Assembly: GCA_047722915.1 (NCBI GenBank)
Contig: JBDNZQ010000011.1
Coordinates: 20,535-84,534, forward strand
Origin: Sporolactobacillus sp.
GTDB taxonomy: Bacteria > Bacillota > Bacilli > Bacillales > Sporolactobacillaceae
Direction of reading: 5' to 3'
Length of the DNA stretch: 64,000 nt
Positions 1,043 through 56,579 of this stretch are shown here, in pieces; within the stretch, counting starts at the first letter, position 1, and every line of letters begins with the position of its first letter. The position numbers were made by a program, and so were the translations under genes. The notes beneath the pieces are model-generated. The model worked only from the letters and a program-made list of their open reading frames with translations, searched no databases and was not told the DNA's origin.

Positions 1043-1045
1043 TGT

Positions 1046-1142
1046 GCGTTAAGAATGTATAAAATGTCAGCGGAACTAAGTCTAAGAAACAGCTAAGGTT
1101 CTGCGCTCTCCCAAGGACTTAGCCTCGCCAAGTTTTTCTAAC
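1046..1142 (+). repeat. M1 dispersed intergenic repeat, copy 1 (forward)
   Basis: GCGTTAAGAATGTATAAAATGTCAGCGGAACTAAGTCTAAGAAACAGCTAAGG...GGACTTAGCctcGCCAAGTTTTTCTAAC. It aligns along its whole length with the other M1 copies listed below. Confidence 0.85.
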
Positions 1143-1272
1143 CAGTAAAGAAAGTCTATGATTTTTGCTGCCATACCGGAAAAAGCGAAGGTGCGAGAGC
1201 GCCTTGCGGGAACCGCGACTAGCGAAACCGAAACGCGGTTGCTTTAAAGGACGGGGTTGCTGTTTGCCCGGT
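1143..1272 (+). repeat. M2 GC-rich repeat module, short variant, fused to M1 copy 1
   Basis: It shares ATGATTTTTG..CATACCGG.AAAA.CG.AGGTG.GAG.GCGCCTTGCGG and CCGCGACTAGCGAAACCG.A.CGCGGTTGC.TTAAAGGAC..G...TTTGCCCGGT with 56388..56579. It lacks about 55 nt of internal sequence present there. Confidence 0.8.
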
Positions 1273-5182: not shown

Positions 5183-5243
5183 ATGAACATGCGCTTCATA
5201 AAAAGGCGGTCGCGGCATGATGTCGAGCGGCCGTTTTTCTAAT

Positions 5244-5342
5244 ACGCCAGGAAAGTCTAAAAATTTCAGCGGAACTTAAGTTTTAGAGAAGTTAAGGCTC
5301 TGCCGCTATCCAAAAGACTGGGCAATGCCCAGTTTTTCTTAT
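5244..5342 (+). repeat. M1 dispersed repeat, copy 2 (forward)
   Basis: ACGCCAGGAAAGTCTAAAAATTTCAGCGGAACTTAAG...GTTAAGGCTCTGCC...GACTGGGCaatGCCCAGTTTTTCTTAT. It follows directly after a GC-rich hairpin plus TTTTTCT downstream of the ABC genes. Confidence 0.85.
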
Positions 5343-19096: not shown

Positions 19097-20371
19097 ATGG
19101 AAGAAATACAGATTACCATGCCGCAGCTCGGTGAGAGTGTCACGGAAGGCACAGTCAGTCAATGGCTCGTCTCAGTCGGTGATGCGGTGAAAAAGTACGA
19201 TCCGCTTGTTGAGGTCACCACCGACAAAGTGAATGCGGAAGTACCGTCCAGCTTTAGCGGTACGGTGACCAAACTGTTGGTTGCGCCAGGAGATACGCTG
19301 GCAGTCGGTGCTCCGATCTGCTTGCTTGCCACGGAGAACTCAGGGGAAGTGAAGACGGGCGTCGCGGAGAAAGAAGCCCTAGAGGCGCAACCGCAGCAGG
19401 CTTCTGGCGGTCACGGCTCGTCCGGACGCGGTGTGCGGCCTGCGGGTCGCTACTCACCTGCGGTACGTGCTCTAGCGCAGCAGCACCACGTGCCGCTTGA
19501 TACGCTGCGCGGCAGCGGTCGCGGCGGTCGCGTGACGCGGCGCGACGTGGAGCGATTCCTTCAGGCAGTGCCGGCTGCTGCCACGGCACTGCCTGAGGCC
19601 GGCCCAGACAATGAAATGTGCGGCGGACAAGAGACGCTGCCTTTGTCCCACCCAAACAAACCGGCAGCACCCGGGGATCGAGTCGTTCCGCTGACTGCCG
19701 TGCGCCGCGCGATTGCCGCCAATATGGTGCGCAGCGTGCATGAGATTCCCCATGCCTGGATGATGGTTGAAGTGGACGTCAGTCGTCTCGTCAACTACCG
19801 CAATCAAATGAAACGAAGCTTTCAAGAAAAAGAAGGAAGCAAGCTGACGTATCTACCTTTTTTTATTAAGGCCATTGTGACCGCGCTTAAAGCGTTTCCA
19901 CGTATGAACAGCACGTGGGCCGGTGATCAGATTATTGAGAAACAAGCCGTCAATGTCTCGCTGGCGGTGGCCGCAGAAGACGCGCTTTATGTACCCGTTA
20001 TCCATCGCGCAGATGAACTGAGCGTCAAGGGGCTTGCCGTACACATTGATGAGCTGGCGGCCAAGGTACGCACCGGGCGTCTTGCCCCTGCCGACGTGCA
20101 GGGCGGTACCTTCACTGTCAACAATACCGGCTCATTCGGTTCCATTGAGTCGCAGCCCATCATTAACTATCCGCAGGCGGCTATTCTATCCATCGAGTCG
20201 ATTGTCAAGCGGCCGGTCGTCATCCATGATATGATTGCGATTCGCGATGTCGTTAACCTCTGTCTATCAGTCGATCATCGCGTGCTCGACGGACTGATTG
20301 CCGGTCGTTTTCTCGCGCATGTCAAGGATTTGCTGGAGCATATCACACCGGAGAATATGCCGATTTACTGA
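19097..20371 (+). CDS. bkdB: Lipoamide acyltransferase (E2) of the branched-chain 2-oxoacid dehydrogenase complex
   Basis: 424 aa. It has a lipoyl domain (VEVTTDKVNAEVPS), a Pro/Ala linker, a subunit-binding domain and a catalytic DHRVLDG motif. Confidence 0.9.
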   Translation: MEEIQITMPQLGESVTEGTVSQWLVSVGDAVKKYDPLVEVTTDKVNAEVPSSFSGTVTKLLVAPGDTLAVGAPICLLATENSGEVKTGVAEKEALEAQPQQASGGHGSSGRGVRPAGRYSPAVRALAQQHHVPLDTLRGSGRGGRVTRRDVERFLQAVPAAATALPEAGPDNEMCGGQETLPLSHPNKPAAPGDRVVPLTAVRRAIAANMVRSVHEIPHAWMMVEVDVSRLVNYRNQMKRSFQEKEGSKLTYLPFFIKAIVTALKAFPRMNSTWAGDQIIEKQAVNVSLAVAAEDALYVPVIHRADELSVKGLAVHIDELAAKVRTGRLAPADVQGGTFTVNNTGSFGSIESQPIINYPQAAILSIESIVKRPVVIHDMIAIRDVVNLCLSVDHRVLDGLIAGRFLAHVKDLLEHITPENMPIY

Positions 20372-20510
20372 GTTGTTCCGTCACGAAAAAGCAGAGCGTG
20401 TTCATCGGATCCGTTTCATGTTGCACATTCGTGCCGGTTAAAAGAGACTGGGTCACTCCGCGTCTCTTAAAGGCAGTCGTATTGCACTTGACTTGACAAT
20501 TCAAGCGATC

Positions 20511-20609
20511 TTAGAAAGACTTGGCTCTGCCAAGTCATTTGGACGACGGCTGAGCCTTAGCTTTTCTTAGACTGAGTCCCGCTGAAGTCTTTATACTTTC
20601 GTAACGTAT
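20511..20609 (-). repeat. M1 dispersed repeat, copy 3 (reverse)
   Basis: The - strand reads ACGTTACGAAAGTATAAAGACTTCAGCGGGACTCAGTCTAAGAAAAGCTAAGGCTCAGCC...GACTTGGCagaGCCAAGTCTTTCTAA. Confidence 0.85.
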
Positions 20610-20656
20610 AAAAAAATGCCAGCTGCACTTGATCAAAGCAGCCGGCGTTCTTTTTT
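20610..20656. terminator. Bidirectional terminator between bkdB and the DMT transporter gene
   Basis: Stem GCCAGCTGC/GCAGCCGGC flanked by AAAAAAA on the left and TTCTTTTTT on the right. Confidence 0.6.
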
Positions 20657-20747
20657 AGTTATTCACTATGCAGGCCCCATCGTTCGGCGATTAGCCCCAA
20701 GTCCAAATCTTATTTTGAACGTTACGTTGTTGCAGCTTTTTACTGTG

Positions 20748-20778
20748 CCGAAAAGCAGTTCACTTCAAGCGAACTGCT
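20748..20778 (-). terminator. Terminator directly after the DMT transporter stop codon
   Basis: Stem GCAGTTC/GAACTGC followed by TTTTC on the - strand. Confidence 0.5.
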
Positions 20779-21690
20779 TTACTGTCGCTTTTCAAGCGGA
20801 TGTTCATCAGCCTTTGCTTTCAGCGGTCTGAATTTGACTTCAGTGATGAGTGATACGCTGCTCAAAATAATAATCATTCCGAATAATTCACCAAAGGAGG
20901 CCATTTCGTGCAGAAAAAGCATGCCCCAGATCACGCCATAGACTGAAACGAGTAACGTGACACTTGACGTCTTTGTCGGACCGACCTGCCTGTTCAAATA
21001 AAAATAGAGAATATAAGCAATGGCCGTGCAAATTAAAGCAAGGGCGAGCACCGCGCAGCTCATGCCGATGCTCAGCCGCATGAGTCTGCCGGCGCTCGGT
21101 AAACTAAAGGGAAGGAGCAGCATGCCTGCTGCCAGCTGCTGGCCGATTGTCACCGTAAGAAAGGGCTCGCTGGCAAAGGCGCGTTTAGCATATACTCCGC
21201 CGAAGCCGTAAGAGACGGCAGCCAGCAGCGAAAACAGAATCGACAGCCAGATGACTGGGGATGTGCCAAGCTGTCCCCAGCCGGCAAGAACGACAACACC
21301 GCCGATGCCGAGCAACAGGCTGATGATTTTTTTAGTGCTGAGGGTCTCCTTAAGCCAGACGCGGGCGACGAGTGCCGTGAACAGCGGTGTGGTTGCATTT
21401 AAAATGGATGAGACCGATGCACTCAGATGCAGTTCCGAACTGGCAATCAGAGTGAAAGGGACAGCGGCATTCAGTGCCCCTAGCAGGAAATATTGCCGCC
21501 ACGTGTGACGGTAGTCCGGAATTTGCCGCGCAGCCAAAACTGAGAGCAGCAGTGCAACTCCGGCGAGCAGCACCCGCAGATCGATAAGCAGAAACGGGCC
21601 GAGAACGGGAGACGCAAGCCGCATAAACAAAAAGGAGGCTCCCCACAGGGCGCCGAGAATATTTAAAACGAGGAAATCTTTAATAGTCAA
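20779..21690 (-). CDS. DMT superfamily (EamA-like) transporter
   Basis: 303 aa with 10 predicted TM segments and two EamA-type repeats. Confidence 0.8.
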   Translation of the reverse strand: MTIKDFLVLNILGALWGASFLFMRLASPVLGPFLLIDLRVLLAGVALLLSVLAARQIPDYRHTWRQYFLLGALNAAVPFTLIASSELHLSASVSSILNATTPLFTALVARVWLKETLSTKKIISLLLGIGGVVVLAGWGQLGTSPVIWLSILFSLLAAVSYGFGGVYAKRAFASEPFLTVTIGQQLAAGMLLLPFSLPSAGRLMRLSIGMSCAVLALALICTAIAYILYFYLNRQVGPTKTSSVTLLVSVYGVIWGMLFLHEMASFGELFGMIIILSSVSLITEVKFRPLKAKADEHPLEKRQ

Positions 21691-21853
21691 CCTTCATCAT
21701 TCCCTTGCAGCAGATACTTTGCCATACTAAAATAGATGAATTGCACGAAACTGTCAACCACCTATCATGCATTTATGAAAGGCATGAGTTTCTCGATGCG
21801 ACGATTCGTCCGCATATAATTAGGGGCAAAACACAAAAAATGACAATCTTTGT

Positions 21854-21952
21854 TTAGAAGAACTTAGCGCTGCTAAGTCCCTTGGGACGATGGCGGAGCC
21901 TTAGCTTGTCTTGGACGGGTTCCGCTGAAATCTTAGTACTTTCTTATCTTGT
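21854..21952 (-). repeat. M1 dispersed repeat, copy 4 (reverse), left flank of the low-GC islet
   Basis: TTAGAAGAACTTAGCGCTGCTAAGTCCCTTGGGACGATGGCGGAGCCTTAGCTTGTCTTGGACGGGTTCCGCTGAAATCTTAGTAC... The ~80-nt core differs at only 4 positions from copy 5. Confidence 0.85.
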
Positions 21953-22069
21953 TAAAAAAACAGGTATTCGGAATTTATGGCGGAAGAAGGCTTACTAATC
22001 GCCTTCTTCCAAATTCTGAAATAAGTGTGGGAAAAGCGACAGCAAAGTTGTCTGTCATGTCATGATCAG

Positions 22070-22402
22070 TCACTTCAAACCAATCGAAAGTATCGTATAA
22101 CATAGCTTTGTTAAGAGCGATCGAATTAAATCGTGGTTTACGCTTCTTATAAAGCTTATCATTGAACAGCAGTTTGACTCGTTGGATAGGTTATGTTTTT
22201 CATTAACGGCTATTAGGCGTTCCCAGAAGGTAGATCGGAATTCACGACACTTGTATCGTTTGCGGTTCAATTGTAGACCCACTTGCTCTGAACAAATGGT
22301 CAAATCCATAATTAGTTGTTTTCTTGAGCTGTGTCCGTACAACTTGTAAAAACCACATTCAGAACAATGTTCAGATGGTTTGATTGCTTCAGCTTTAAAC
22401 AT
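22070..22402 (-). mobile_element. ISL3-family transposase N-terminal fragment (remnant)
   Basis: 110 aa with the zinc-finger-like pattern HCSECG..KLYGH..R.L.DL...G..V.L...RKRYKC. This matches ISL3 transposase N-termini. The second Cys pair is degenerate and the catalytic domain is absent. Confidence 0.45.
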
Positions 22403-22513
22403 CCTATCGGTATTATTTTCTGGTGGGGGTTCAATTGCAGTTAGATTTGAAAGACATAGTAGATGTCATATTGTTCATCTTTTAAACAGAAGGTGGGAAA
22501 TGTCCCTGCTTCG

Positions 22514-22963
22514 TTACTGTATAGGAACTAATATTTCACACAAATGATTATCAATCATTTGTGAAGTATATCTTTCTATAATGGGTTGTTCCCTTATTAA
22601 TAAATGATTTCTTTCTATCTCAGAAAAAATATTGCCCCAAAATTCACTGACTGCCGCTTTTGTATGATCAAGCAAGAAAACAGCGTATTTCCCACCAGAA
22701 AATTCACTAACATAGGCTGGCTTTTCCACATTAAAATCTTTATTTATAACAACGCAAACATCATAACGGCATGCCTCTTTAGGAGTAATCTCTGGATTAT
22801 CTTGCGGTATACCTAAAATTGTAGAATTATCAAATACACCATTCGATTTTGCCCATTTTTTAAAATTCTCCATTAATTCTTTGTTTTGCTTTTCACCATA
22901 CTCCCCCACATTTCGAAAATAAGCAATCCTTGATTCAGGTAGTTCTTCAATAGTTATTTTCAT
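22514..22963 (-). CDS. GyrI-like small-molecule-binding domain protein
   Basis: 149 aa. It begins MKITIEELPESRIAYFRNVGEYG and ends IERY....D...CEILVPI, typical of the GyrI-like/SbmC effector-binding fold. Strongly AT-rich codon usage. Confidence 0.7.
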   Translation of the reverse strand: MKITIEELPESRIAYFRNVGEYGEKQNKELMENFKKWAKSNGVFDNSTILGIPQDNPEITPKEACRYDVCVVINKDFNVEKPAYVSEFSGGKYAVFLLDHTKAAVSEFWGNIFSEIERNHLLIREQPIIERYTSQMIDNHLCEILVPIQ

Positions 22964-23084
22964 ATTTTAATTCTCCTTTCTTAGATAAGGTAATTCGATT
23001 TAAAATTTTTTTCAAGCTTTTTTACAGATTTTTACTATAGTATAGTTTAATTAATCCATTATTCCACTATATACTCCGAAGACC

Positions 23085-23182
23085 TTAAAGAACTTAGCGC
23101 TGCCAAGTCCCTTGGGACGACGGCGGAACCTTAGCTTGTCTTGGACGGGTTCCGCTGAAATCTTAGTACATTCGTAACGTAT
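23085..23182 (-). repeat. M1 dispersed repeat, copy 5 (reverse), right flank of the low-GC islet
   Basis: TTAAAGAACTTAGCGCTGCCAAGTCCCTTGGGACGACGGCGGAACCTTAGCTTGTCTTGGACGGGTTCCGCTGAAATCTTAGTACATTCGTAACGTAT. Confidence 0.85.
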
Positions 23183-23397
23183 AAATAAGACAGGTCTAAG
23201 ACTAATCTGGACGCTGGACGATAATGCTTAATGACAGACCACACTCACATCACATCAAAGTGTCCGTTTCCATTGTGCTTGCCTCTGCTGTTAACGCGCT
23301 CTAATCGTTCGATTTTTCTGCGTCGTTCATCATCTGTTCATCTACGCGGTATATGCTTGAGTTGGCATCAAGTATTCTGAAAAAAGAGAGGGTGAAC

Positions 23398-24078
23398 GTG
23401 TTGGGAACAGTTTTAATTGTCGACGATGACCCGAACATTCGCGAACTTGTCCGCGTTTTTTTGCAGGAAGAAGGACTCGTTTGTCTGGAGGCGGCAACCG
23501 GTGTGGAAGCACTTACCGTGCTTGAGAGCGGACAGGTGGCGCTCGTTGTGCTTGATATTATGATGCCGGAGATGGACGGTTGGATGTTCTGCGAACAGGC
23601 GCGTGCTTTGTATCCCGAACTTCCGATTCTTATGCTTACCGCGAAAGGTGAAACCGCGCAGAAGGTAAAGGGCTTTCGCCTTGGCGCCGACGACTACTTA
23701 GTCAAACCGTTTGAGCCGATTGAGCTTGTTATGCGCATCAAAGCACTTTTGCGGCGATATCAGGCGGTCGCAGCTTTTACTGTGCAGGTCGGTTCACTTG
23801 TCATTGATCAGCAGTCACACGTCATTCACGATCGTGAAAAAGACTATGTCATTCCGCTAAAGGAGTTTGAGCTGCTCTTTACGCTTGCGGCTTCGGCGGG
23901 CCGTACGTTTTCTCGCGAGGATCTCATTGAAAAGATCTGGGGTTATGACTTTGCCGGCGATGAGCGCACCGTTGACGTACATATCAAGCGTTTGAGGGAA
24001 CGCTTTAATTCGAATGACTGTGGATTTTCTATTCGTACGGTTCGCGGATTGGGCTACCGGCTGGAGGAGATATCATGA
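23398..24078 (+). CDS. OmpR/PhoB-family response regulator
   Basis: Receiver domain (LIVDDDPNIRE...DIMMPEMDG...LTAKG) plus a winged-helix output domain. I prefer the GTG at 23398, after RBS GAGAGG. The track ORF starts at 23353. Confidence 0.85.
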   Translation: MLGTVLIVDDDPNIRELVRVFLQEEGLVCLEAATGVEALTVLESGQVALVVLDIMMPEMDGWMFCEQARALYPELPILMLTAKGETAQKVKGFRLGADDYLVKPFEPIELVMRIKALLRRYQAVAAFTVQVGSLVIDQQSHVIHDREKDYVIPLKEFELLFTLAASAGRTFSREDLIEKIWGYDFAGDERTVDVHIKRLRERFNSNDCGFSIRTVRGLGYRLEEIS

Positions 24079-25193
24079 AAAAAGTGGCCCGTTTTCTTTT
24101 TTGGCTAGGCAGTGTTCTGCTTTTTTTCTCGCTGATTTCAAGCTTTTTTTATGCGCTGCTTAATGGAGTCAGACGGTTGCTGCACGCCGCATGGCCGTCG
24201 TTTGTCGTTCACCTGCTCAGCGCCAACCTAGGTGTCGTCGGTTTCATCAGCGTGTTTTATCTGACGGCGCATGTCTATGCTCACCGTCATCATACGCACC
24301 GGGCCAACTACTTTCAGGCACTGATGCAGGCGATACGCGAGATTTCAAAGGGGAATTTTGACATTGATACGCTTGACTTACCGGTGGCATTTAGCGAACG
24401 TTCGCGGCGGCATAATCCGTTTCAAATGCTGTCAGACGGCTTGAAAGAGATGGCACATGAACTTGGAAAAATTGATCAAGTGCGCCAGCAGTTCATTTCC
24501 AATGTGTCGCATGAGATCCAGTCACCGCTGACTTCGATTAAGGGTTTTGCCCGAGCATTGGAGAATGCCGGGCTCAGTGAGCAGCAGCGCCTTCACTATT
24601 TGCAGATTATTCAACAGGAAACCGAGCGCCTGTCAAACCTTAGCACCAATCTATTAAAACTGACATCGCTTGAAAATGATGTGCACTTGCTGGCGGTTAG
24701 CGCTTATCGTGTGGATCGCCAGATTCGGCAGTCTTTGCTGTTTTTTGAAACCAAGTGGGAAGAGAAGCAGCTTACACTTGATATCGAGCTTGAGCCCGTC
24801 GTTATTCGCGCTGATGCGGAGTTGATGGAACAAGTCTGGCGTAATTTAATTCAGAACAGCATCAAGTTCACACCAGCAGGCGGGAGAATCGCGGTGAAAC
24901 TCTACGTGCGTAAACACCGCGCTTATTTTGAAATCAGTGATACGGGCATCGGCATTCGTCCGGAAGAGCAGGTGCATCTGTTTGAGCGCTTTTACAAGGC
25001 TGACCGTTCGCGCAACCGAATGATTGAAGGCAGCGGGCTCGGTCTGTCGATCGTCAAAAAAATTATTGATGTTCACGGCTGGAGCATTCGCGTGGCGAGC
25101 GATTACGGTCACGGAACGACCTTTATCGTCAGCGTGGGCTTGCCTGATGATGAAACGCATCAAACGACGGAAGTCAGCGAGAGCACGCGGTGA
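24075..25193 (+). CDS. Sensor histidine kinase (two TM segments with a short external loop)
   Basis: 372 aa with H-box SHEIQSPLTSIKG and an HATPase_c domain with DTGIGI and GSGLGLSIV. It has an ATGA overlap with the regulator gene. Confidence 0.85.
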   Translation: MKKVARFLFWLGSVLLFFSLISSFFYALLNGVRRLLHAAWPSFVVHLLSANLGVVGFISVFYLTAHVYAHRHHTHRANYFQALMQAIREISKGNFDIDTLDLPVAFSERSRRHNPFQMLSDGLKEMAHELGKIDQVRQQFISNVSHEIQSPLTSIKGFARALENAGLSEQQRLHYLQIIQQETERLSNLSTNLLKLTSLENDVHLLAVSAYRVDRQIRQSLLFFETKWEEKQLTLDIELEPVVIRADAELMEQVWRNLIQNSIKFTPAGGRIAVKLYVRKHRAYFEISDTGIGIRPEEQVHLFERFYKADRSRNRMIEGSGLGLSIVKKIIDVHGWSIRVASDYGHGTTFIVSVGLPDDETHQTTEVSESTR

Positions 25194-25365
25194 ACCGGCA
25201 GTCTGAGGCAGGACCCGCAATGTCACAAAAAGAGGCGGCGCTCTTTTGTGCAAGACGTCTTCCAAAGGCTCAATAATTCGAGCTTTCGCCATACCGCAGA
25301 ATCGACAACAGAGTCCATTGTAAACAAAAAAAACGGTGATCAAACTGCATGCAGGCACTCGCTCT

Positions 25366-26913
25366 TTATTTCACTGAGGGACGGAACAGTTCAAATAATC
25401 CCATGCATGCCGTGCCGATCAGAACGGCTACGGCTGTCCACATGCTCGTGTGAAAAGCAAAAAGAAAGGCGTCGTCGGCTTTCAATCGAATCGCTATTTT
25501 CGCGGTTGTAACAATTGATGAATGGTTGAGAGCAGTACGCGTTTGGCTTAATGATTCAAGTGTATAAATCTTCAATCCTAATTTGTCTGCTGAGGGAGAT
25601 AAGGCGTTCGTCAGATATTGCCTATAAACCATTGAATATAGGGTGCCGAGGACACCTACTCCGACAATGGAGATTAATCCGCGTACGGTATTCGTCAAAC
25701 CCGCACCCGCGCCTGCTTTTTCCGCGGAAACGGCGGCCATTGTCAGTTGCGTTGTAGCGCCCATGGCCAATCCCATACCGACTCCCGAAAGCAAAAAGCC
25801 AATCTCAATCATGAGGACCAGTGTGTGTTGATTACTCCAACTAAAAATGATAAAACCGGAGGCAATAATAAGCAGTCCGGCTGTAGCAATTGCTTTTGCG
25901 CCGAAAGATCGGGACAATCGAGCGCTGGCGAGCGAACCGATGATTGCACCGCCGGCAACAGGAAACATAAGTAGTCCCAGCATTAGAGGCGTGTTATGGC
26001 GAATAAGCTGCATGAAAAAAACAAGCACGTAAGTTCCACCGGAAAGCGCAAAGTAAGCACAAGAAATGGCTAAGGTGCCAAAGGAAAAACCAGAATTTTT
26101 AAAAAGATTGAGCGCAAGTAACGGATCTTTTTGCCTCGTTTCAAAGAAGACAAGCACCATGATCAGGATCAAACCGAGCAGCAGCGAACCACTGACGAGA
26201 GGGTCAAACAAGCCGTGATGACTTTGCCCCATTTGGACCAGCCCGTACATCAGCACACTGATGCCCGTGATGCACATGAGCGAGCCCCAAAAATCAATGG
26301 CAGTGTCAAAACGGTTAACAGATTCGACCACATAGCGTCCAATAATGAGTACACAGCATAGCACAATGGGTATGTTGATTAAAAAAATACTCCACCAAGG
26401 CAAAAATCGAATGAGCAGCCCGCTGAGAATGGGTCCGAAGGCAACGGAGGCACCGCCGGCAGCTGACCAGATGCCGAGCACTTTACTCTGTTCCTTGGAA
26501 GTAAATGTATTTTTGATGATAGCTAATGTGGTGGCTGGTACAACGGCACCGCCTATTCCCATTCCCACTCGCCACATAATGAGTGCCTCCATGTTGTCGC
26601 TCAGCGCAATGCCGCATGAGGAAAGAAGGAACAGCGTAAGACCGATTGTAAGTATTCGTTTTCTACCGAAGCGGTCTGCCAGAAAACCTGCGGGAAGCAG
26701 CAGTGAGCAATAAGGAATTTCATAAGCGACTACCGCCCATTGGAGTTGTGAATTGCTCGCCTGGAAATGCTGTTGTATAGTCTGCAGTGCAACGTTAAGA
26801 ATGGAGTAATCCATCATGACCATCAAGTAGGCGAGACTGACGGCCGCAATGATCCAATTTTTTTGCTTGACTGTCCATGTTTCAGGTGTCACTCTTCTGT
26901 TTTCATTAGACAC
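25366..26913 (-). CDS. MFS drug:H+ antiporter (DHA2/EmrB-QacA type, 14 TM)
   Basis: 515 aa with motif A LADRFGRKR and 14 hydrophobic segments. It lies downstream of an ArsR-family gene. Confidence 0.85.
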   Translation of the reverse strand: MSNENRRVTPETWTVKQKNWIIAAVSLAYLMVMMDYSILNVALQTIQQHFQASNSQLQWAVVAYEIPYCSLLLPAGFLADRFGRKRILTIGLTLFLLSSCGIALSDNMEALIMWRVGMGIGGAVVPATTLAIIKNTFTSKEQSKVLGIWSAAGGASVAFGPILSGLLIRFLPWWSIFLINIPIVLCCVLIIGRYVVESVNRFDTAIDFWGSLMCITGISVLMYGLVQMGQSHHGLFDPLVSGSLLLGLILIMVLVFFETRQKDPLLALNLFKNSGFSFGTLAISCAYFALSGGTYVLVFFMQLIRHNTPLMLGLLMFPVAGGAIIGSLASARLSRSFGAKAIATAGLLIIASGFIIFSWSNQHTLVLMIEIGFLLSGVGMGLAMGATTQLTMAAVSAEKAGAGAGLTNTVRGLISIVGVGVLGTLYSMVYRQYLTNALSPSADKLGLKIYTLESLSQTRTALNHSSIVTTAKIAIRLKADDAFLFAFHTSMWTAVAVLIGTACMGLFELFRPSVK

Positions 26914-26999
26914 ACGGATCTCATCCCGTCTTTAATTTTATATGTTTAATCATATGAACTTATTGATCAAAAAAAATGAAACTGATTGTCGCCAAAAGA

Positions 27000-27326
27000 T
27001 CAGGACTCGATTGCCCTTTCAACGGCGGTTACAAGACGTTTCAATGAGTCAAGAAAGGTATCCGGAACGAGTGAATAATATTTTTCGGTGCTTTTGCGAC
27101 TGAATGTGACTAGCTGCGCATCGCGCAAAATTTTTAAATGATGCGAGACTGCGGGTCTGGAGATATGCAGACGATCAGTCAGTTGATTCACATTGAGCGT
27201 ACCGCTTTTCAATAGGATAGCAACAATTTGCTGGCGGTTATCGTCGCCGAGTGCCTGAAAAATGGGGGTCGATTGCTTAAAATTGTCAAGAATGACAGCT
27301 GAAGCAGCACACACGTCATGTTCCAT
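27000..27326 (-). CDS. ArsR/SmtB family transcriptional regulator
   Basis: 108 aa with the HTH LNVNQLTDRLHISRPAVSHHLKILRDAQLV. Confidence 0.8.
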   Translation of the reverse strand: MEHDVCAASAVILDNFKQSTPIFQALGDDNRQQIVAILLKSGTLNVNQLTDRLHISRPAVSHHLKILRDAQLVTFSRKSTEKYYSLVPDTFLDSLKRLVTAVERAIES

Positions 27327-27371
27327 GAGTAGCGCTCCGTTTCACATGATTATACGTTTAAAAGCATGAAC

Positions 27372-27400
27372 ATTATAAGCGACAACCACCCTTATGTCAA
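27372..27400 (-). promoter_or_regulatory. Sigma-A type promoter of the arsR-MFS operon
   Basis: The - strand reads TTGACA, a 17-nt spacer, then TATAAT. Confidence 0.55.
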
Positions 27401-27477
27401 GTTCACATGGTCGGCTTTAAAAAATCTTTACATAACGGCATTTGAAGGGTGAAGATGTTGGCCGGTGAGCGCCGTTA

Positions 27478-27579
27478 TCAGTTCATACCTGCCAAGGCAG
27501 CAATGAGTCCGCCGACTGTGGAGAGGACCATTGCGATAATCATTAAGTAAATGACAACTTTAAACACTTTTTTTGACAT
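27478..27579 (-). CDS. 33-aa membrane miniprotein, Prli42/DUF4044-like
   Basis: MSKKVFKVVIYLMIIAMVLSTVGGLIAALAGMN with RBS GGGAGG 6 nt upstream. Its basic N-terminus plus single TM resembles Listeria Prli42 as I recall that sequence. Confidence 0.45.
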   Translation of the reverse strand: MSKKVFKVVIYLMIIAMVLSTVGGLIAALAGMN

Positions 27580-27722
27580 GAGCAGCCTCCCAGCTCTTTC
27601 GCTCTCTTGAGCGCAAAACATCCTTTTTTTATTATAGACAAGCGGGAGCTCTTTTCCAATATGAAAGATGGGCGGATAATATGATAGAATAAACACAAGG
27701 AAGAGAAGCAGAGGGTAAGCCC

Positions 27723-28859
27723 ATGCAAGGTATTGTTAATGAAAAAAGACTTGTCGGCGAGTTGATCGAGCTGTTGAAAGTGGACTCACCGACGGGGCAT
27801 GAACAGGTGCTGGCAAGTCTGCTTGAACGCAAGTTGGCCGCACTTGACGTGCGCGTTCAGCGCTGTCCATCCGGTATGGGAAGCGATAACCTCGTCTGCC
27901 AGCTGCCCGGCACAACCGCTGGCAAGACGCTTTTATTTAGCGCGCATATGGATACAGTGGCTGCCGCGGTGCATGTTCAGCCGCGCTTCTCGTGCGGGCG
28001 CTTTTCGTCGGCGGGCACGATGTCAGCACGTGGCAGTGATGATAAAACCGGTATTGCCGCTTTGCTGGAAGCGCTTCGTGTCGTTCGCGAATGCGGCCTT
28101 CCCCATGCCGGCTTGCGCATTGTACTGACAGCCGGCGAAGAGTCGGGCTTGATTGGCGCAAAAGCGCTGGACCGGGAGCTTATTCTTGCTGATTACGGAT
28201 TTGTGCTCGATGGTGAGGGGAAAGTCGGAGGCATCATTGCTGAGACGCCTTATCGCCGGCGTTTGATCGTTGACGTGTGCGTATCTGAACGTTTCCGCCA
28301 GAAACGGGCACAGAAAGCATCGGCAATGGCTGTGGCCACGGCGGCTGTTGCCCATATGCCGCTTGGCCATATCACTGCGACCACCGCAGCGGAAATTGTT
28401 CGTTTCGAACGAGTGAGTGCAGATGGTGTCGATCACGTCAAAATTACTGTTGAAATTTGTACAGCCGATACGTTTGGGCTTCATCAGCAATCCGAACGAA
28501 TCATAGCAGCTTTTCAGCAGGCAGCCTCTCAGGCCGGCGGCATTGCACGTGTTGACGTAGTCGAGCATTATGCAGGTTACCATTTTTCTGCGAATGCACC
28601 CGTCGTGCGCCGTGCATGTGCAGCCGTCAAAGCCATTCAATGTCAGCCCGAGCTGCTTACCAGTCAATGGGGGAGCGACGCCAATATATTCTCTGCTTTG
28701 GGTGTGCCGACGGTGGCCCTCTCAGTTGGCTTTGAGCGGATTCATACGCCCGAAGAGTATCTGCCAATGGGTGAACTTGTGAGGACGGTCAAGCTTGTTC
28801 TGGCCTTAATTGCCGGTGCCTGTGCTTTAAAGGATTCATGGCAGACACGATACAGCTGA
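27723..28859 (+). CDS. M20-family metallopeptidase/deacylase (YqjE-like)
   Basis: 378 aa with metal ligand motifs SAHMDTV, GSDDKTGIAA and TAGEESGLIGAK. It is syntenic with B. subtilis yqjE, next to polY1. Confidence 0.75.
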   Translation: MQGIVNEKRLVGELIELLKVDSPTGHEQVLASLLERKLAALDVRVQRCPSGMGSDNLVCQLPGTTAGKTLLFSAHMDTVAAAVHVQPRFSCGRFSSAGTMSARGSDDKTGIAALLEALRVVRECGLPHAGLRIVLTAGEESGLIGAKALDRELILADYGFVLDGEGKVGGIIAETPYRRRLIVDVCVSERFRQKRAQKASAMAVATAAVAHMPLGHITATTAAEIVRFERVSADGVDHVKITVEICTADTFGLHQQSERIIAAFQQAASQAGGIARVDVVEHYAGYHFSANAPVVRRACAAVKAIQCQPELLTSQWGSDANIFSALGVPTVALSVGFERIHTPEEYLPMGELVRTVKLVLALIAGACALKDSWQTRYS

Positions 28860-28971
28860 TAACCGGTTGCCGCTTAACAAGCTGTTGTTTTGGAACGCAG
28901 GCCCGCCGCATCTTGCACCGGTCTTTCGGCGGTAAGTTGTACCGACTAAGGGATGCCCGTCGTAAAACCAT

Positions 28972-30243
28972 TTGTTCCATTTTGGGCAGCGGAAGGGGAG
29001 AGAAGCATTGCAGCGCGGCCAAGGGAGAATTATTTTTCATCTGGATATGAACTCTTTCTTCGCTTCTGTCGAGCAGGCTCATCATCCTGAATTGCGCGGC
29101 AAACCGCTGGCCATTGCCGGGCGTCAGGAAGAGCGACACGGCATTGTTGTTACAAGCAGTTACGAAGCCAGACAGTGGGGTGTGCGCACGCCAATGCTCG
29201 TCAGCGAAGCCGTGCGGCTTTGCCCGCAGTTGATCATTCGCCAGCCCGATTTTGAATTATACCGGGCAACTTCTGCGATGCTTTTTAAAATGCTGCGGCG
29301 TTATACCGAGCGAATCGAGAAGGCGTCGATTGACGAAGGCTATCTTGATATGACGGGTTATGCCGGCACGGAACCGATTATCTCACTTGCCATGCATATC
29401 CAGCGGCGAATTCTCCGGGAGATGAAGCTACCGTCAAGCCTTGGCATTTCTCCAAACAAGTTTTTGGCAAAAATGGCATCGAATATGAAAAAGCCGCTTG
29501 GATTGACTGTTTTGCGGCTCAGAGATATTCAAGAAAAACTTTGGCCGCTGCCGATCGGTACGATGCACGGTATCGGTGCAAAAACTGAAAAAAAATTGAA
29601 ACGGCTTGGCATTCAGACCATTGGAGACCTGGCAGGCAGTGATCGCCTGCGGATGGCTGAACGGTTTGGCCAGTACGGCGTGAAGATGTGGGAACGAGCC
29701 AATGGTCGTGACGATCGACCGGTTGATCCGGAGGCATGGGAACGCTACAAGACGATCGGCCATTCCGTGACTTTGGCGAAGGATACCGTGTCGCCCGATA
29801 GGATCGCCGAAACTTTTGAATCTCTCGCTCAAAAGCTGGAAAGTCAAGTGAAACGTGAACACGTTGTGGCTTATGAGTTAATGATTACGATTCGTTATGC
29901 GACTTGGCAAACGGCCACCCGACATTTTTCGCTGAAACAGCCACTCTATGAAGCCAAGGCCATCAGCGAGCAAGCCCGGCTGCTCTTTCTTTCAATGTGG
30001 GCGGGTCAGGCTGTACGACTGCTCGGTATTACGCTTGGTGATTTTCAGCCGTTTGCCTCAGCGACAAAGCAACTTGATCTTTTTTCTTATACAGAGGATA
30101 TTCGCGCAGAAGCACGGACTGCGCTCATTGAGGATATTCGCGCACGTTTCGGTGCGGAAGCGCTCAAGCCTGCGGCGGCGCTTATCGCCGGTAAGCCGAC
30201 AAATCATGAGTTACGCAAGCGTACGGACAGCGGTCCGCTATGA
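28972..30243 (+). CDS. dinB: DNA polymerase IV (Y-family, PolY1/DinB)
   Basis: Motifs IFHLDMNSFFASVE, SIDEGYLD and a helix-hairpin-helix. A TTG at 29008 after RBS GGAGAG is the likelier start. There is no LexA box upstream. Confidence 0.85.
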   Translation: MFHFGQRKGREALQRGQGRIIFHLDMNSFFASVEQAHHPELRGKPLAIAGRQEERHGIVVTSSYEARQWGVRTPMLVSEAVRLCPQLIIRQPDFELYRATSAMLFKMLRRYTERIEKASIDEGYLDMTGYAGTEPIISLAMHIQRRILREMKLPSSLGISPNKFLAKMASNMKKPLGLTVLRLRDIQEKLWPLPIGTMHGIGAKTEKKLKRLGIQTIGDLAGSDRLRMAERFGQYGVKMWERANGRDDRPVDPEAWERYKTIGHSVTLAKDTVSPDRIAETFESLAQKLESQVKREHVVAYELMITIRYATWQTATRHFSLKQPLYEAKAISEQARLLFLSMWAGQAVRLLGITLGDFQPFASATKQLDLFSYTEDIRAEARTALIEDIRARFGAEALKPAAALIAGKPTNHELRKRTDSGPL

Positions 30244-30264
30244 GAAAGACTTGGCGGCAAGTCG
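30243..30264 (-). repeat. Fragment resembling the terminal hairpin of M1
   Basis: AGAAAGACTTGGCggCAAGTC compared with AGAAAGACTTGGCtctGCCAAGTC in copy 3. Confidence 0.3.
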
Positions 30265-30397
30265 CTGACCAAGCAGGCACAAAAGGAAAGACGCAGCTCG
30301 GGTGCTCGCCGTCAGCGATGGCGGGGCCTGCTCAAGTAATAGACAACAGGTGTTTAGCCCAAAGCGGAGCTGTGGAATGGAAAAGAGGTAGGGATGG

Positions 30398-31351
30398 GTG
30401 GACTTTACTTTTCTGGGAACAGGTGCCGGCATGCCGGCAAAGGAACGGAATGTCAGCGCACTGGCTGTTTCTTTTCCGGAATATGACGGTGATCTTTGGC
30501 TGTTTGATTGCGGTGAGGGAACGCAGCGGCAAATTCTGTATACACCGGTGCGTTTGCCAAAATTATCGGCTATTTTTATCACGCATCTGCACGGCGATCA
30601 TATCTATGGCTTGCCCGGTATACTCGGCAGCCGGTCCTTTCAGACAGACGAACGATCTTTGACTGTAATCGGTCCGGTGGGAATCAGAAAGTTCATTGAG
30701 ACCGCTTTAAACGTTTCAAAAACGCATTTGCGCTATCCGCTGATGTTCAAAGAGATGAATGAAAAAGGGACGGTCTTTGAAAACGCACACTTTTCAGTAA
30801 CGGCCGCGCCTCTCGACCATGGCGTGCCGAGCTTTGGCTTTCGCATCGTTGAACGCGACCAACCCGGAGAATTGCGCGTTGATAAGTTGTGCGGCATGGG
30901 TATCACGCCCGGACCGATTTACCGCCAATTTAAAGAACGTGAATTTGTCACCCTTGCTGACGGGAGGGTGCTTTGCGCTGCCGACTTTCTTGGCCCGGTA
31001 AAAAAAGGACGCGTTACAGTGATTCTTGGCGATACGCGGCCGTGTGCGGAAGCCGCAGATTTGGCACAGGGGGCGGATGTAATCGTGCACGAGGCGACCT
31101 TCCGGCAAAAAGATGCTGCGCTTGCACACGATTACCATCATTCGACGTCTGTTCAGGCTGCAAAGCTGGCCAAATCGGCTGCCGCGTCAATGCTTATTCT
31201 TAATCACATCAGTTCGCGCTATCAGAAAGCCGATCAGCAAGGGCTGCTCAGCGAAGCTCGATCGGTTTTTCAGCAGACGATGCTGGCGACTGATCTTTGG
31301 ACGTGGGTACTTGGACACGGTTCATCGCACCAGAGGCATTCATCTGTATAA
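30398..31351 (+). CDS. rnz: Ribonuclease Z
   Basis: 317 aa. It begins FLGTGAGMP and has the metallo-beta-lactamase motif THLHGDHIYGLPG. GTG start. Confidence 0.9.
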   Translation: MDFTFLGTGAGMPAKERNVSALAVSFPEYDGDLWLFDCGEGTQRQILYTPVRLPKLSAIFITHLHGDHIYGLPGILGSRSFQTDERSLTVIGPVGIRKFIETALNVSKTHLRYPLMFKEMNEKGTVFENAHFSVTAAPLDHGVPSFGFRIVERDQPGELRVDKLCGMGITPGPIYRQFKEREFVTLADGRVLCAADFLGPVKKGRVTVILGDTRPCAEAADLAQGADVIVHEATFRQKDAALAHDYHHSTSVQAAKLAKSAAASMLILNHISSRYQKADQQGLLSEARSVFQQTMLATDLWTWVLGHGSSHQRHSSV

Positions 31352-31581
31352 TATTCGCTTTTATCCGGCTTTGGTAAGGATTGTTCGTCGTGCAAAAATG
31401 AATATCAATTCATTTTTGAAGGCTACCCACTCAAAACAGCAGAAGGATTGTCTGTTTATGCCGTGAATGGGAAAAAATGCATCAGTTGAATTTTAATTTT
31501 TTAACATTCTGGAAACTGTCAAGGATCCGTCCCTGAATCACTGATAATACCGTATGACTTGACCGGCAACTTGTAAAATTG

Positions 31582-31679
31582 TTAGAAAAACTTGGCGAGG
31601 CCAAATCCTTTAGACGATGGATGAGCCTTAGTTTTTCTTATACTTCGTTTCGCTGAAATCTTTATATTTTCTTAACGTA
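31582..31679 (-). repeat. M1 dispersed repeat, copy 6 (reverse)
   Basis: The - strand reads ACGTTAAGAAAATATAAAGATTTCAGCGAAACGAAGTATAAGAAAAACTAAGGCTCATCC...GATTTGGCctcGCCAAGTTTTTCTAAC. Confidence 0.85.
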
Positions 31680-31683
31680 CAAG

Positions 31684-31712
31684 AAAAAGCCTCCTTTGCG
31701 GGAGGCTTTTTT
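31684..31712. terminator. Bidirectional terminator after amt
   Basis: Stem GCCTCC/GGAGGC with loop TTTGCG, flanked by AAAAA and TTTTTT. Confidence 0.75.
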
Positions 31713-31733
31713 AAATAATCAACTATACAACTA

Positions 31734-33002: not shown

Positions 33003-33049
33003 TCAATGAATTCTCCCCTCATCTATGATGCTCATAGTATAACATACGG

Positions 33050-33066
33050 TGTTACGAGATGTAACA
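33050..33066 (-). promoter_or_regulatory. TnrA/GlnR box
   Basis: TGTTACGAGATGTAACA is a perfect match to TGTNA-N7-TNACA. It overlaps the -35 position relative to a TATACT element and lies 48 nt upstream of the amt ATG. Confidence 0.65.
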
Positions 33067-33700
33067 GAAAAATAGTAAAAATATTCATTTATTTATGGAA
33101 GCCTTTGCATCCTTAACATTTTTTCCATAAAATTTAGAGCAAAAAATGTTAATACAGATGATACTTAATCGTAAAACGGAATATTTTAATTGGATTAAGC
33201 AGATAATATTCGCTGTTTTTCTAAATTGGATTACTTTTTTATTAATGTATAAATTTACTATATTTAATAAAATATGTTAAATAAATACTCATTTTAAATA
33301 ATTGTATCAACATAAATTTTATTTATAACAGCATATGTTGCAAACGTTAACATTTAAAGCTGATTAGTCAAATGACTGTCCCTATTTCATTTCTCCTGAG
33401 GTATCTTGAGATGTATTGTGGCGTGACGTGGGGACGACGTGTTTTTCTATAGGCGAGCAGAGAGCAGACGGTTGGCAAAAAAAATGGATTAACTCGGCTT
33501 CGATAGGTTAAAATAGAAAGTGAAATAGTTTGAATGTCTCGCTGCCGTAAACAGGTTTAATGATTGTTGCTTAGGACTGCCGCTTTTTAAGCTGCCAAAC
33601 AAGACCGGTGACCGGCGCGTGGACTTGTAAAGTAGCGTCGTATGCAAAATGATGTCCGCCGCAAACGCCAACACTCGCTTAATATGAAAAGCTAAAAATC

Positions 33701-33736
33701 AACCGTGTATACAGTCTTGCGCACACGGTTTTCGTT
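33701..33736 (+). terminator. Terminator-like hairpin immediately upstream of the AI-2E permease RBS (possible attenuator)
   Basis: Stem AACCGTGT/ACACGGTT with a 14-nt loop, followed by TTCGTT. It ends 14 nt before the ATG at 33751. Confidence 0.4.
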
Positions 33737-33750
33737 AGGACAGGAGAAAA

Positions 33751-37918: not shown

Positions 37919-37933
37919 TTCAAATCATACATT

Positions 37934-38000
37934 CAGAAAGTATAAAAATTTCAGCGGAACTAAGTATAAGAAAAAACTCAGTCTTTCTCAAGGCATAAAA
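37934..38000 (+). repeat. M1 dispersed repeat, copy 7 (forward, 3' truncated)
   Basis: CAGAAAGTATAAAAATTTCAGCGGAACTAAGTATAAGAAAAAACTCAG... The terminal hairpin is missing. Confidence 0.7.
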
Positions 38001-39891: not shown

Positions 39892-39928
39892 ATCGTTTAT
39901 TTGCAGATCAGGGTAGTCCGGCAGTCTC

Positions 39929-40105
39929 GGAAAATTTCAGCCGATTAGAGGCAGGGGGCACGCCGGCGCCTGCGGGAGAAGCGTGCCGAGCGAGACCCCG
40001 CAGGGCATCACTTGTCTGAGGAGGCTTGCAATGCGCCCGCGGCAAGCGAGCAATCGGAGCACTGTTGCTTTAAAGAATCGGGCACTTTTGTTCGGTTTTT
40101 CTAAC
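39929..40105 (+). repeat. M2 GC-rich repeat module (with a short M1-like 5' piece)
   Basis: GGAAAATTTCAGCCG resembles the M1 core. The rest is ...GCGCCTGCGGGAGAAGCGTGCCGAGCGAGACCCCGCAGGGC...TCTGAGGAGGCTTGCAATGCGCCCGCGGCAAGCGAGCAATCGGAGCACTGTTGCTTTAAAGAATCGGGCACTTTTGTTCGGTTTTTCTAAC. This aligns with 56430..56579. Confidence 0.7.
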
Positions 40106-41587: not shown

Positions 41588-41669
41588 AAAACGAATGACA
41601 GGCTGTTTGATAATGAGGTCATATTTTGTTTGAACAGTAGCCGTCTGTTCTTGTGAAAGCTCCGGTTTA

Positions 41670-41755
41670 TCTGAGAAGGGGCACAACGTTCGCGACAAGC
41701 GCGCTGGAGCACTAGACTGTAAAGAACCGGGCGATTTTTGCCCGGCTTTTCTAGT
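41670..41755 (+). repeat. M2 repeat module, 3' part only, acting as the fur terminator
   Basis: TCTGAGAAGGGGCACAACGTTCGCGACAAGCGCGCTGGAGCACTAGACTGTAAAGAACCGGGCgatttttGCCCGGCTTTTCTAGT. Terminal hairpin CCGGGC/GCCCGG plus a T-run. Confidence 0.7.
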
Positions 41756-41853
41756 ACGTTAAGAAAGTATAAAGACACCAGAAGAATCAAGGATAAGAAA
41801 AGCTAAGCCTCTGCCCTTGAACAAAGACTGGCAATGCGTCCTATTATTCTCTA
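41756..41853 (+). repeat. M1 dispersed repeat, copy 8 (forward, degenerate 3' end), directly behind M2
   Basis: ACGTTAAGAAAGTATAAAGACACCAGAAGAATCAAGGATAAGAAAAGCTAAGCCTCTGCC...GACTGGCAATGCGTCC... Confidence 0.75.
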
Positions 41854-55803: not shown

Positions 55804-56286
55804 TGCTCTCAAACGATTTTTTATTTTTTATTTCGAGAGGCTTAAAGATCTAGCTGCGCAGGAGCAGCGGCTAGCTAAATTAATAGAATCATCTCACCGG
55901 ATTGGCTTTTTTCGTCAAAACGGTAAAAGAAAAAGGTGCGGCGCATGCATGGTCGCTGCATCTTTTTCTTGCACGATAATGGGTTTCAAGACTGTTTGCG
56001 AGCAGCTGCATGATGCTGTTTTTTCGAAGCGGCAAACCGGATGAACGGTCGCATACGCCGGGTCTGTTAGGGATGTGCGCCCGGTTCACACCAAACGTAC
56101 AGTCGCAGCATGCACGCTTGAAACCTGCGTGGGCAGACATGCAAATTGTCGCTCACATGAGCGCCGCCGGCAATCTGATCAGGACGCACGACAATAAGTG
56201 AAACAGACTAATCAGGCGGTGTAACCGGATGCAGATGCTTGCCCGCGCCTGTATTTTACCTTATACTTTGATGGATCCTTTCTTAT

Positions 56287-56387
56287 ACGTAAAGGAAGAA
56301 TAAAGATTTCAGCGGGACTAAATATTAAGAAAAAGCTAAGACTCTTCTGTTATTTTTAAGGGCTTGGCGAAGCCAAGTTTTTCTAAC
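56287..56387 (+). repeat. M1 dispersed repeat, copy 9 (forward)
   Basis: ACGTAAAGGAAGAATAAAGATTTCAGCGGGACTAAATATTAAGAAAAAGCTAAGACTC...GGCTTGGCgaaGCCAAGTTTTTCTAAC. Confidence 0.85.
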
Positions 56388-56579
56388 AAGCAAAGAGATG
56401 ATATGATTTTTGACGTCATACCGGGAAAAACGGAGGTGTGAGGGCGCCTTGCGGCAACAACGTGCCGGGAGGCCCTGACGCTGGCCTGTTTGAGGAGGTT
56501 CGCGGTGCGCCCGCGACTAGCGAAACCGGAGCGCGGTTGCCTTAAAGGACCGGATCGCTTTTGCCCGGTTTTTCTTAAT
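56388..56579 (+). repeat. M2 GC-rich repeat module, long variant, fused to M1 copy 9
   Basis: It is colinear with 1143..1272 plus about 55 extra nt (CAACAACGTGCCGGGAGGCCCTGACGCTGGCCTGTTTGAGGAGGTTCGCGGTGCGC). It ends with GACCGGatcgcttttgCCCGGTTTTTCTTAAT. Confidence 0.8.

Follow-up and report, generated by a model that had tools for sequence, protein, structure and literature searches.

M1, a non-coding repeat of about 100 nucleotides (nt), is placed preferentially behind intrinsic terminators in Sporolactobacillus. We analysed a 64,000-nt stretch of a Sporolactobacillus sp. metagenome-assembled genome (MAG; assembly GCA_047722915.1, contig JBDNZQ010000011.1, positions 20,535–84,534 of the forward strand), hereafter the window. 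It carries nine M1 copies, named c1 to c9 in coordinate order, five on the plus strand and four on the minus strand. We confirmed that the terminator adjacency and the orientation bias of M1 are real, significant and replicated in a second genome. Judging from sequence comparison, we lean slightly towards M1 being a non-autonomous element that is mobilised in trans and homes to terminators. More tentatively, M1 and its relatives, here termed M elements, could form an undescribed class of terminator-homing non-coding mobile DNA of ~100–200 nt, moved by an enzyme that would read 'hairpin plus T-tract' both as donor end and as target; we hold this broader idea to be possible rather than probable. 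Full-text literature searches found no published description of these Sporolactobacillus elements.

M1 starts just past a hairpin and T-run

M1 copies were defined by repeat finding, alignment and nhmmer profile search. We pooled 20 independent (non-tandem) M1 junctions from the window and from a second MAG, Sporolactobacillus sp. WK069_bin.8. Seventeen were T-rich (at least 6 T within the 12 nt upstream), compared with 13.7% of random intergenic positions (P = 1.7e-12). A T-rich tract together with a hairpin of −11 kcal/mol or better was present at 10 of the 20 junctions and at 2.3% of random intergenic positions (P = 6e-12). A run of five or more T (T5+) was present at 16 junctions, 11 of which had such a hairpin, whereas 251 other intergenic T5+ runs gave 23.9% (P = 1.9e-4). 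M1 pointed the same way as the upstream gene at 16/20 junctions. Both the enrichment and the orientation bias hold for 20 junctions in two genomes, the enrichment being measured against random intergenic positions; the preliminary description of this DNA had proposed a genome-wide comparison with shuffled intergenic positions. In the window alone the count was eight of nine, as that description had stated, and the exception it placed at 23085–23182 is c5. Orientation tracks transcription, not replication, since the five-to-four strand split falls on a GC skew that is positive throughout the window (GC ~49%).

The spacing was narrow. From the foot of the target hairpin to the junction we measured mostly 8–11 nt, and the junction fell 0–5 nt past the T-run. 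The left flank follows the pattern T5–7, 0–3 nt, RT; it ends in RT in nearly all copies and resembles the TTTTTCTAAY with which the element itself ends. The foot of the element's own hairpin lies 9–10 nt from its own 3′ end, equal to the target spacing. On the basis of this equal spacing and the TTTTTCTAAY-like flank, the target mimics the right end of the element. An intrinsic terminator would release its transcript at roughly this offset, too.

In five window copies (c1, c2, c3, c6 and c8), 8–10 nt that include a T-rich tract separate the start of M1 from the foot of the hairpin before it. Copy c3 (20510..20609, minus strand; full length, 97.6 bits with nhmmer) follows a terminator-like hairpin at 20610..20656 (minus strand), in which an A-run and T7 flank a 9-bp GC-rich stem (GCCGGCTGC/GCAGCTGGC). 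This structure ends 2–3 nt before the c3 5′ end, the 46 nt upstream of c3 fold at −19.0 kcal/mol, and the flanking A-run and T7 bear out the earlier reading of the terminator as bidirectional. Copy c1 (1044..1142, plus; 80.5 bits) lies behind a weak hsp20 terminator-like hairpin (1013–1043; −11.4 kcal/mol) and T6. Copy c2 (5242..5342, plus; 86.8 bits) follows the 3′ hairpin of an ABC exporter (5205–5241; −18.5 kcal/mol) and then TTTTTCTAAT, and c6 (31581..31680, minus; 86.7 bits) follows the amt terminator (31681–31712; 10-bp stem, −16.0 kcal/mol) and TTTTTCTTGT. Upstream of c8 (41754..41837, plus; 34 bits over model positions 2–86, with a degenerate 3′ part) is the 3′ hairpin of an M2 unit, M2 being a second repeat described below.

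The remaining copies fit less closely. Copy c7 (37927..37984, plus), truncated at its 3′ side to the first ~55 nt, starts 13 nt past a hairpin (37888–37918; −21.0 kcal/mol) without a proper T-run (TTCTTCAAATCAT); the hairpin looks like the 3′ end of an M2-type element and not like a terminator of czcD. T7 stands immediately upstream of c4 (21853..21952, minus), as reported earlier, with the closest hairpin ~30 nt away; c4 follows an ISL3-family transposase fragment (22070..22402, minus), a truncated insertion sequence (IS) whose 110-amino-acid open reading frame (ORF) holds a Zn-ribbon only. Copy c5 (23083..23182, minus), 90% identical to c4, has no hairpin and a T-rich CTTATTTAT upstream. Likewise, c9 (56285..56387, plus; 76.9 bits) has only a T-rich CCTTTCTTAT. 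The preliminary description had listed six 'hairpin plus T-run' sites in the window, naming the one at c8 as an M2 terminal hairpin. All six hairpins are present, 8–13 nt from the junction, but c7 lacks a real T-run, and the hairpins of c8, probably of c7 and perhaps of c2 are M2-type 3′ ends rather than gene terminators.

In WK069_bin.8, M1 again sits behind hairpin and T-run, 3′ of the G6PD, MCP, Ppk, rpsO and SLT genes, and M1 arrays occur there too. It was the sole other species representative to match the strict M1 pattern in a scan of species-representative genomes. A pattern scan of metagenome contigs returned one chance match, within a coding region, and a BLAST search of M1 and M2 against plasmids and phages gave no match.

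The terminators are pre-existing DNA

The hairpins upstream of the elements differ from copy to copy and are unrelated in sequence. Orthologous genes keep the hairpin and T-run where the element is absent, which identifies these as DNA that was there before it. The fur terminator is present and element-free in the locus labelled L012, the E2 terminator in L012 and L017, the amt terminator in L018 (another Sporolactobacillus species) and the hsp20 terminator in S. terrae and CQH2019. At the PNP terminator, L012, L017 and L020 have no element, and the window has a hairpin there with neither T-run nor element. Elsewhere the PNP terminator is occupied: S. terrae has an M2-like unit immediately behind it, L018 an M1-like unit and S. 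spathodeae a different M2-like unit. The 3′ arm of the terminator, CCCCGGCTCTTTTT, is common to the occupied L018 and the empty L017. The preliminary description had considered that orthologous loci might reveal hairpin and T-run to be part of the element; across the fur, E2, amt, hsp20 and PNP loci, they behave as target DNA.

Conserved ends and a variable interior

Full-length copies in the window are c1 to c6 and c9, whereas c7 and c8 are incomplete or degenerate. The M1 consensus is RTACGTTAAGAAAGTATAAAGATTTCAGCGGRAC...AGCTAAGGCTC...GGACTTGGCnnnGCCAAGTTTTTCTAAY. The literal 5′ end given earlier, ACGTTAAG, matched exactly at only three sites (31678, 41756 and one chance match elsewhere), and RTACGTTAAG fits better. 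Group-wide, the left end is a conserved stretch of ~25 nt, RTACGTTAAGAAAGTATAAAGATTT (short form RTACGTTAAGAAAG), common to M1, M2 and their relatives in S. terrae, S. spathodeae and others. The right end has the form of an intrinsic terminator, a GGACYKGGC...GCCMRG hairpin followed by TTTTTCTAAY; in c3 it reads ACTTGGCAGAGCCAAGT then CTTTCTAAG. This agrees with the earlier description of M1 as ending in a hairpin plus TTTTTCT. The hairpin is structurally conserved, with 91.8% of cells paired and 11 cells changed on both sides, compared with 37–62% in slid controls.

Between the ends, modules vary, and across subfamilies only the ends are conserved; M copies are 75–90% identical to one another. 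A TAAGAAA(G) motif occurs at the left end and again mid-element, at the end of a 5′ 'module A', with an inverted copy inside the right-end T-tract. Truncated copies, c7 among them, nearly always lack the 3′ part but still have the left junction and module A. The only terminal inverted repeat is a short imperfect match between TTAAGAAAG (left) and CTTTTTCTAA (right). A palindrome across the junction was weak in M1 (z = −0.3) and clearer in M2-like units (z = −2.3 and −3.6). RNAalifold found no conserved left-end hairpin in 16 copies. A different, long hairpin that the 3′ half of c3 could form was rejected, as other copies do not conserve it.

Signs of movement and chaining

Two S. terrae strains, CP082837 (L013) and AP021853 (L014), are 99.7% identical in the flanks around the PNP spacer. 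L014 carries an extra 345-bp unit exactly after the ...GCCCGGTTTTTCTTAC of its first unit, and TTAAAAACGCAG comes next in both strains. The single L013 unit is orthologous to the first L014 unit and is not a chimera of the two. No target duplication was present at this polymorphic junction, which answers, for this insertion point, the earlier question of a target duplication. In a third S. terrae strain (JAQS01000067, L030), an extra M-type left end stands right behind an M2-like unit at the 3′ end of the ABC exporter, where other strains have unique DNA; this second case is incomplete, since the contig ends there.

Elements of different subfamilies also form head-to-tail chains. In the order M1–M2, c1 runs into an M2 at 1143..1271 (plus; it shares the 5′ end CAGTAAAGAAAGTCTATGATTT, and its 3′ hairpin has no T-tract), the chain spanning 1044–1271, and c9 runs into an M2 at 56388..56578 (plus; ending GCCCGGTTTTTCTTAA), spanning 56285–56578. 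In the order M2–M1, a partial M2 behind fur (41662..41753, plus), whose 3′ hairpin CCGGGCGATTTTTGCCCGG is followed by CTTTTCTAGT, abuts c8, the chain spanning 41662–41837. Such mixed chains require insertion, because tandem duplication cannot produce them. The proposal that self-recreated sites explain the tandem arrays is supported for the heterologous chains and for the S. terrae insertion behind the element's own 3′ hairpin, but M1–M1 arrays, at 95–97% identity, resemble local duplication.

A candidate mechanism and the points against it

These observations would be accommodated by a trans-acting enzyme, encoded elsewhere in the genome, that recognises 'hairpin plus T-tract' as the right end of the element and as its target. 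The best fit would be a single-strand, hairpin-reading recombinase or transposase, either of the HUH type (IS200/IS605, IS91 or RAYT, the transposase associated with repetitive extragenic palindromic (REP) sequences) or a hairpin-targeting IS110/IS1111-like enzyme. Integration would be structure-directed, oriented and duplication-free, with orientation set by the asymmetry of the terminator. The elements lie at two kinds of site, pre-existing gene terminators and 3′ ends of elements already resident, and the second kind gives head-to-tail chains of different subfamilies. Because the right end of the element is itself an intrinsic terminator, each insertion would create a new landing site.

The lack of duplication, the strict orientation, a right-end hairpin ~10 nt in, target-end mimicry and head-to-tail chaining argue against a classical DDE cut-and-paste MITE (a miniature transposable element with inverted repeats). 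Classical MITEs make target-site duplications; M1 differs in that the flanks of single-copy insertions are not direct repeats and none was found at the S. terrae insertion. TA, YTAR, other short duplications and integron-like GTTRRRY cores were rejected by eye, as single-copy flanks do not repeat.

Several observations weigh against terminator homing in trans. Seven of the 20 junctions have no hairpin. In S. spathodeae (L023, 9789–9904), an M-type unit whose own 3′ end is terminator-like has no terminator in front of it; it lies directly 3′ of the conserved fur promoter (TTGACAC-17-TATAAT), in the expected fur 5′ leader, and the orthologous spoIIM–fur site in L020 is empty. Given the hairpin-less junctions and these other contexts, a T-rich motif such as CTTTCTTA, not the hairpin, may be the true target. 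Only one conserved hairpin is evident, at the right end, whereas IS200/IS605 elements carry one per end. The L013/L014 polymorphism could equally be a deletion in which the two 32-nt right ends recombined. Like units in an array share 95–97% identity (L004, 98-nt period; L023, 174-nt period), and arrays of such near-identical units are probably local duplications. Copies c4 and c5, the most similar pair of M1 copies, have ~13 nt of upstream flank in common and bracket a GyrI-like gene and the ISL3 fragment, which suggests a segmental duplication. The empty/filled comparisons at gene terminators are all cross-species; the window's species is represented by a single recorded strain, and Logan contigs from SRR26216075/76 match the window at 100% identity. 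Finally, no enzyme partner was found in the ~280 kb examined, and mobility in trans is what we infer.

Alternative explanations

Several of these points would also be expected if M1 had no target specificity, an explanation that we regard as unlikely. M elements would then spread unspecifically or by recombination at T-rich microhomology, survive where a terminator-bearing insert is harmless and form arrays by local duplication. The within-array identity, the flank shared by c4 and c5 and the hairpin-less junctions all speak for it. The pneumococcal repeats SPRITE, BOX and RUP show a similar enrichment between convergent genes, and Croucher et al. ascribed it to tolerance (PMC3049150). Selection of this kind explains region and orientation but not a junction fixed 0–5 nt past the T-run and 8–11 nt past the hairpin foot, and it leaves unexplained why different subfamilies hit the PNP terminator independently. 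Nor does it sit well with a hairpin enrichment that holds once a T5+ run is given.

It is rather improbable that M1 and M2 are host-useful RNA modules (multicopy small RNA genes, stabilisers of 3′ untranslated regions or backup terminators) that are under selection and copied by gene conversion or recombination. Their right end forms a canonical terminator and shows compensatory changes, an M2-like right end is the sole terminator at the 3′ end of the S. terrae ABC-exporter operon, and one copy carries a Bacillaceae-1 RNA (63.5 bits). Conversion among copies is suggested by the first S. terrae element, which is ~4% divergent between strains whose flanks are 0.3% divergent. However, conservation across subfamilies is limited to the ends, with a modular interior, many copies are truncated, and presence is patchy among species and strains. 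No sigma-70-type promoter is conserved at the M1 5′ end, the only consensus match being antisense and confined to c3. Rfam gave no match to M1 or M2 at gathering thresholds in the window and 13 loci, nor at E <= 1 across the whole window or E <= 10 in the c3 region (20480–20680).

A relationship to class C group II introns, to which the preliminary description had likened M1, is very doubtful, whether M1 is taken as a relic or miniature of such an intron or as DNA retro-mobilised by its reverse transcriptase. These introns (for example, B.h.I1 and O.i.I1) target terminators in the sense orientation (PMC1702495). As with M1, they insert a few nt past a terminator stem-loop and T-stretch (or other hairpins), without duplication, and can stack; this likeness in target geometry and orientation stands, but it is the only one. 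Their boundary nucleotides are 5′ GUGYG and 3′ AY; c1 starts GTGCG and the elements end ...CTAAY, but the consensus 5′ end is RTACG. Class C introns measure ~400–700 nt or more, with six ribozyme domains and usually a reverse transcriptase ORF, whereas M1 has ~100 nt, about one-fifth of the minimal intron RNA, with no detectable intron domain, no domain V-like hairpin and no reverse transcriptase gene nearby. The Rfam models Intron_gpII and group-II-D1D4 did not match at E <= 1 in the whole window or at E <= 10 in 20480–20680. In truncated copies the 5′ junction survives and the 3′ part is missing, whereas reverse transcription that began at the 3′ end and stopped early would give the reverse.

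Equally improbable, and refuted for natural gene terminators, is that the upstream hairpin and T-run belong to an element with a hairpin at each end that targets nothing: several upstream flanks (TTTTTCTAAT, TTTTTCTTGT and CTTTTCTAGT) do resemble the element's own 3′ end, and the hairpin upstream of c8, probably also that of c7, is an M2-type right end, but upstream hairpins are unrelated between copies and element-free orthologous genes retain theirs.

Search for a partner enzyme

A Pfam scan of 30 window proteins and 10 proteins beside M1 copies in the second MAG found only housekeeping genes and the ISL3 Zn-ribbon fragment, in line with the earlier statement that the window holds no obvious partner enzyme. 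No reverse transcriptase domain was present among the scanned window genes and the genes beside MAG copies. A tblastn search of ~280 kb with an IS608 TnpA query gave no match to a Y1 transposase, and no RAYT-like gene was seen by this search or among the scanned genes of the window and beside MAG copies. We rejected the ISL3 fragment as a partner, as the ISL3 family makes 8-bp duplications. Large ORFs following two truncated M1 copies (L004 and L006) were rejected as cargo, being an MCP chemoreceptor and PNPase.

Comparison with known mobile elements

M1 shares several features with IS200/IS605 elements and their non-autonomous derivatives, the palindrome-associated transposable elements (PATEs), and with REP sequences and bacterial interspersed mosaic elements (BIMEs) with their RAYT. 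These have no notable terminal inverted repeats, make no target duplication and carry a hairpin ~10 nt from the right end. IS200/IS605 insertion is also oriented, 3′ of a short sequence resembling the right-end cleavage site, and BIMEs, like M elements, form mosaic extragenic arrays at gene 3′ ends. Unlike in IS200/IS605, a single conserved hairpin is seen in M1, the target includes a variable hairpin rather than a fixed tetra- or pentanucleotide, and orientation tracks transcription, not replication. REP units and BIMEs are built of 20–40-nt palindromic units with a conserved 5′ tetranucleotide, whereas the M1 unit is 100 nt long and non-palindromic. Oriented, duplication-free insertion at hairpins is also known from IS1111/IS110 elements that target REP or attC hairpins and from integron cassettes, which form arrays of hairpin-ended units as M1 does. 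IS1111/IS110 elements are 1.2–1.5 kb long with a DEDD transposase, and integrons use an integrase and GTTRRRY core sites; neither was seen here.

Pneumococcal SPRITE and BOX are small non-coding Firmicute repeats with no known transposase that cluster and insert beside one another (Croucher et al. 2011, PMC3049150). SPRITE resembles a terminator, is described as acting as one and, like M1, occurs mainly at the 3′ ends of genes, and BOX shares with M elements conserved end modules around a variable middle. Neither has been described at a fixed offset behind existing terminators or as chaining through its own terminator (PMC3049150), and as far as we could judge the sequences are not alike. By analogy, SPRITE and BOX are the nearest described Firmicute counterparts of M1, which is best filed as a small non-autonomous interspersed element with unusual terminator-directed placement.

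Class C group II introns are a known case of terminator homing and rely for it on a reverse transcriptase and a large ribozyme. If a 100-nt element makes the same choice, a second route of recognition, protein-based or other, would exist, and M1 would offer a short natural signal for integration at safe sites downstream of genes, in a defined orientation. Part of the genus's intrinsic terminators would then derive from mobile elements, with insertions supplying or replacing gene terminators, as in the S. terrae ABC-exporter operon, and structured RNAs such as Bacillaceae-1 would move as cargo. In annotation, M repeats may pass for the terminators of genes or for genes of small RNAs.

M2 and the wider family

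M1 is one subfamily of small modular non-coding elements found across Sporolactobacillus, with M2 and its relatives as others. The window holds four M2 copies: the three chained units described above and one between the NUDIX and spoIIM genes (39900..40105, plus), which ends in a hairpin and TTTTTCTAAC and was missing from the earlier list. M2 has ends like those of M1 (left, CAGTAAAGAAAGTCTATGATTT; right, GGACCGGGC...GCCCGGTTTTTCTTAA). Related units are present in S. terrae, S. spathodeae and L018. The 20-kb syntenic loci of CQH2019 have no elements, and those of L012 and L017 have none save one 20-nt right-end-like fragment in L017. This patchy distribution and the 75–90% identity between copies fit a recent spread.

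Two inserted modules distinguish the two S. terrae units at the PNP site; one is a Bacillaceae-1 RNA (RF01690), a motif of two hairpins with RUCCU loops. It lies at L014 13169–13236, inside the 345-bp polymorphic M2-like unit, and scored 63.5 bits against a gathering score of 35. The motif is absent from M1 and M2 in the window. The RNA can apparently travel as M-element cargo.

M2 cores (window 39965–40105; L014 13040–13110) share, in two species, a conserved GAGGAGG followed after 6 nt by ATG or GTG and a short frame, MRPRQASNRS.... This is probably mere nucleotide conservation, although a Shine–Dalgarno-like or anti-UCCU element is possible. In S. spathodeae (L023, 1–422), at least 2.4 tandem M2-like units of 174 nt (95% identical) end 10–20 nt short of the 2-oxoacid dehydrogenase E2 start codon; the locus starts inside the array, and each unit has a weak terminator-like hairpin. 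A further sequence, CGCTTGAATTGTCAAGTC, occurs just 3′ of c3 (window 20490–20509) and just 5′ of an M1 copy in the second MAG (L006 4090–4114), and may be another small module of the M repeat system.

Short-read contigs L001, L015, L024 and L030 end within M-type elements, and the 1,385-bp L001 is flanked by c3 and c4. M-type repeats disrupt assemblies and are probably numerous genome-wide.

Other features of the window

A block of ~13 kb (20371–33750), from the E2 gene to an AI-2E transporter gene, contains four of the nine M1 copies and is missing at that position in S. terrae, L012, L017 and S. spathodeae. It encodes EamA, a two-component system, MFS, ArsR, an M20 peptidase, a Y-family polymerase, an MBL-fold gene and amt.

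The region 1368–1640, between an M2 and the heterodimeric ABC exporter (1645–5182), has a strong promoter match (TTTACA-17-TATAAT), a short ORF (~1434–1530) and a long terminator-like hairpin (1566–1608). The arrangement resembles a leader-peptide attenuator of the bmrB–bmrCD type and is the same in S. terrae and CQH2019. Upstream of lysA, a lysine riboswitch (53670–53837, plus strand) scored 25 bits against an Rfam gathering score of 30, and its L012 orthologue scored 99 bits; the aptamer in the window is divergent or decaying.

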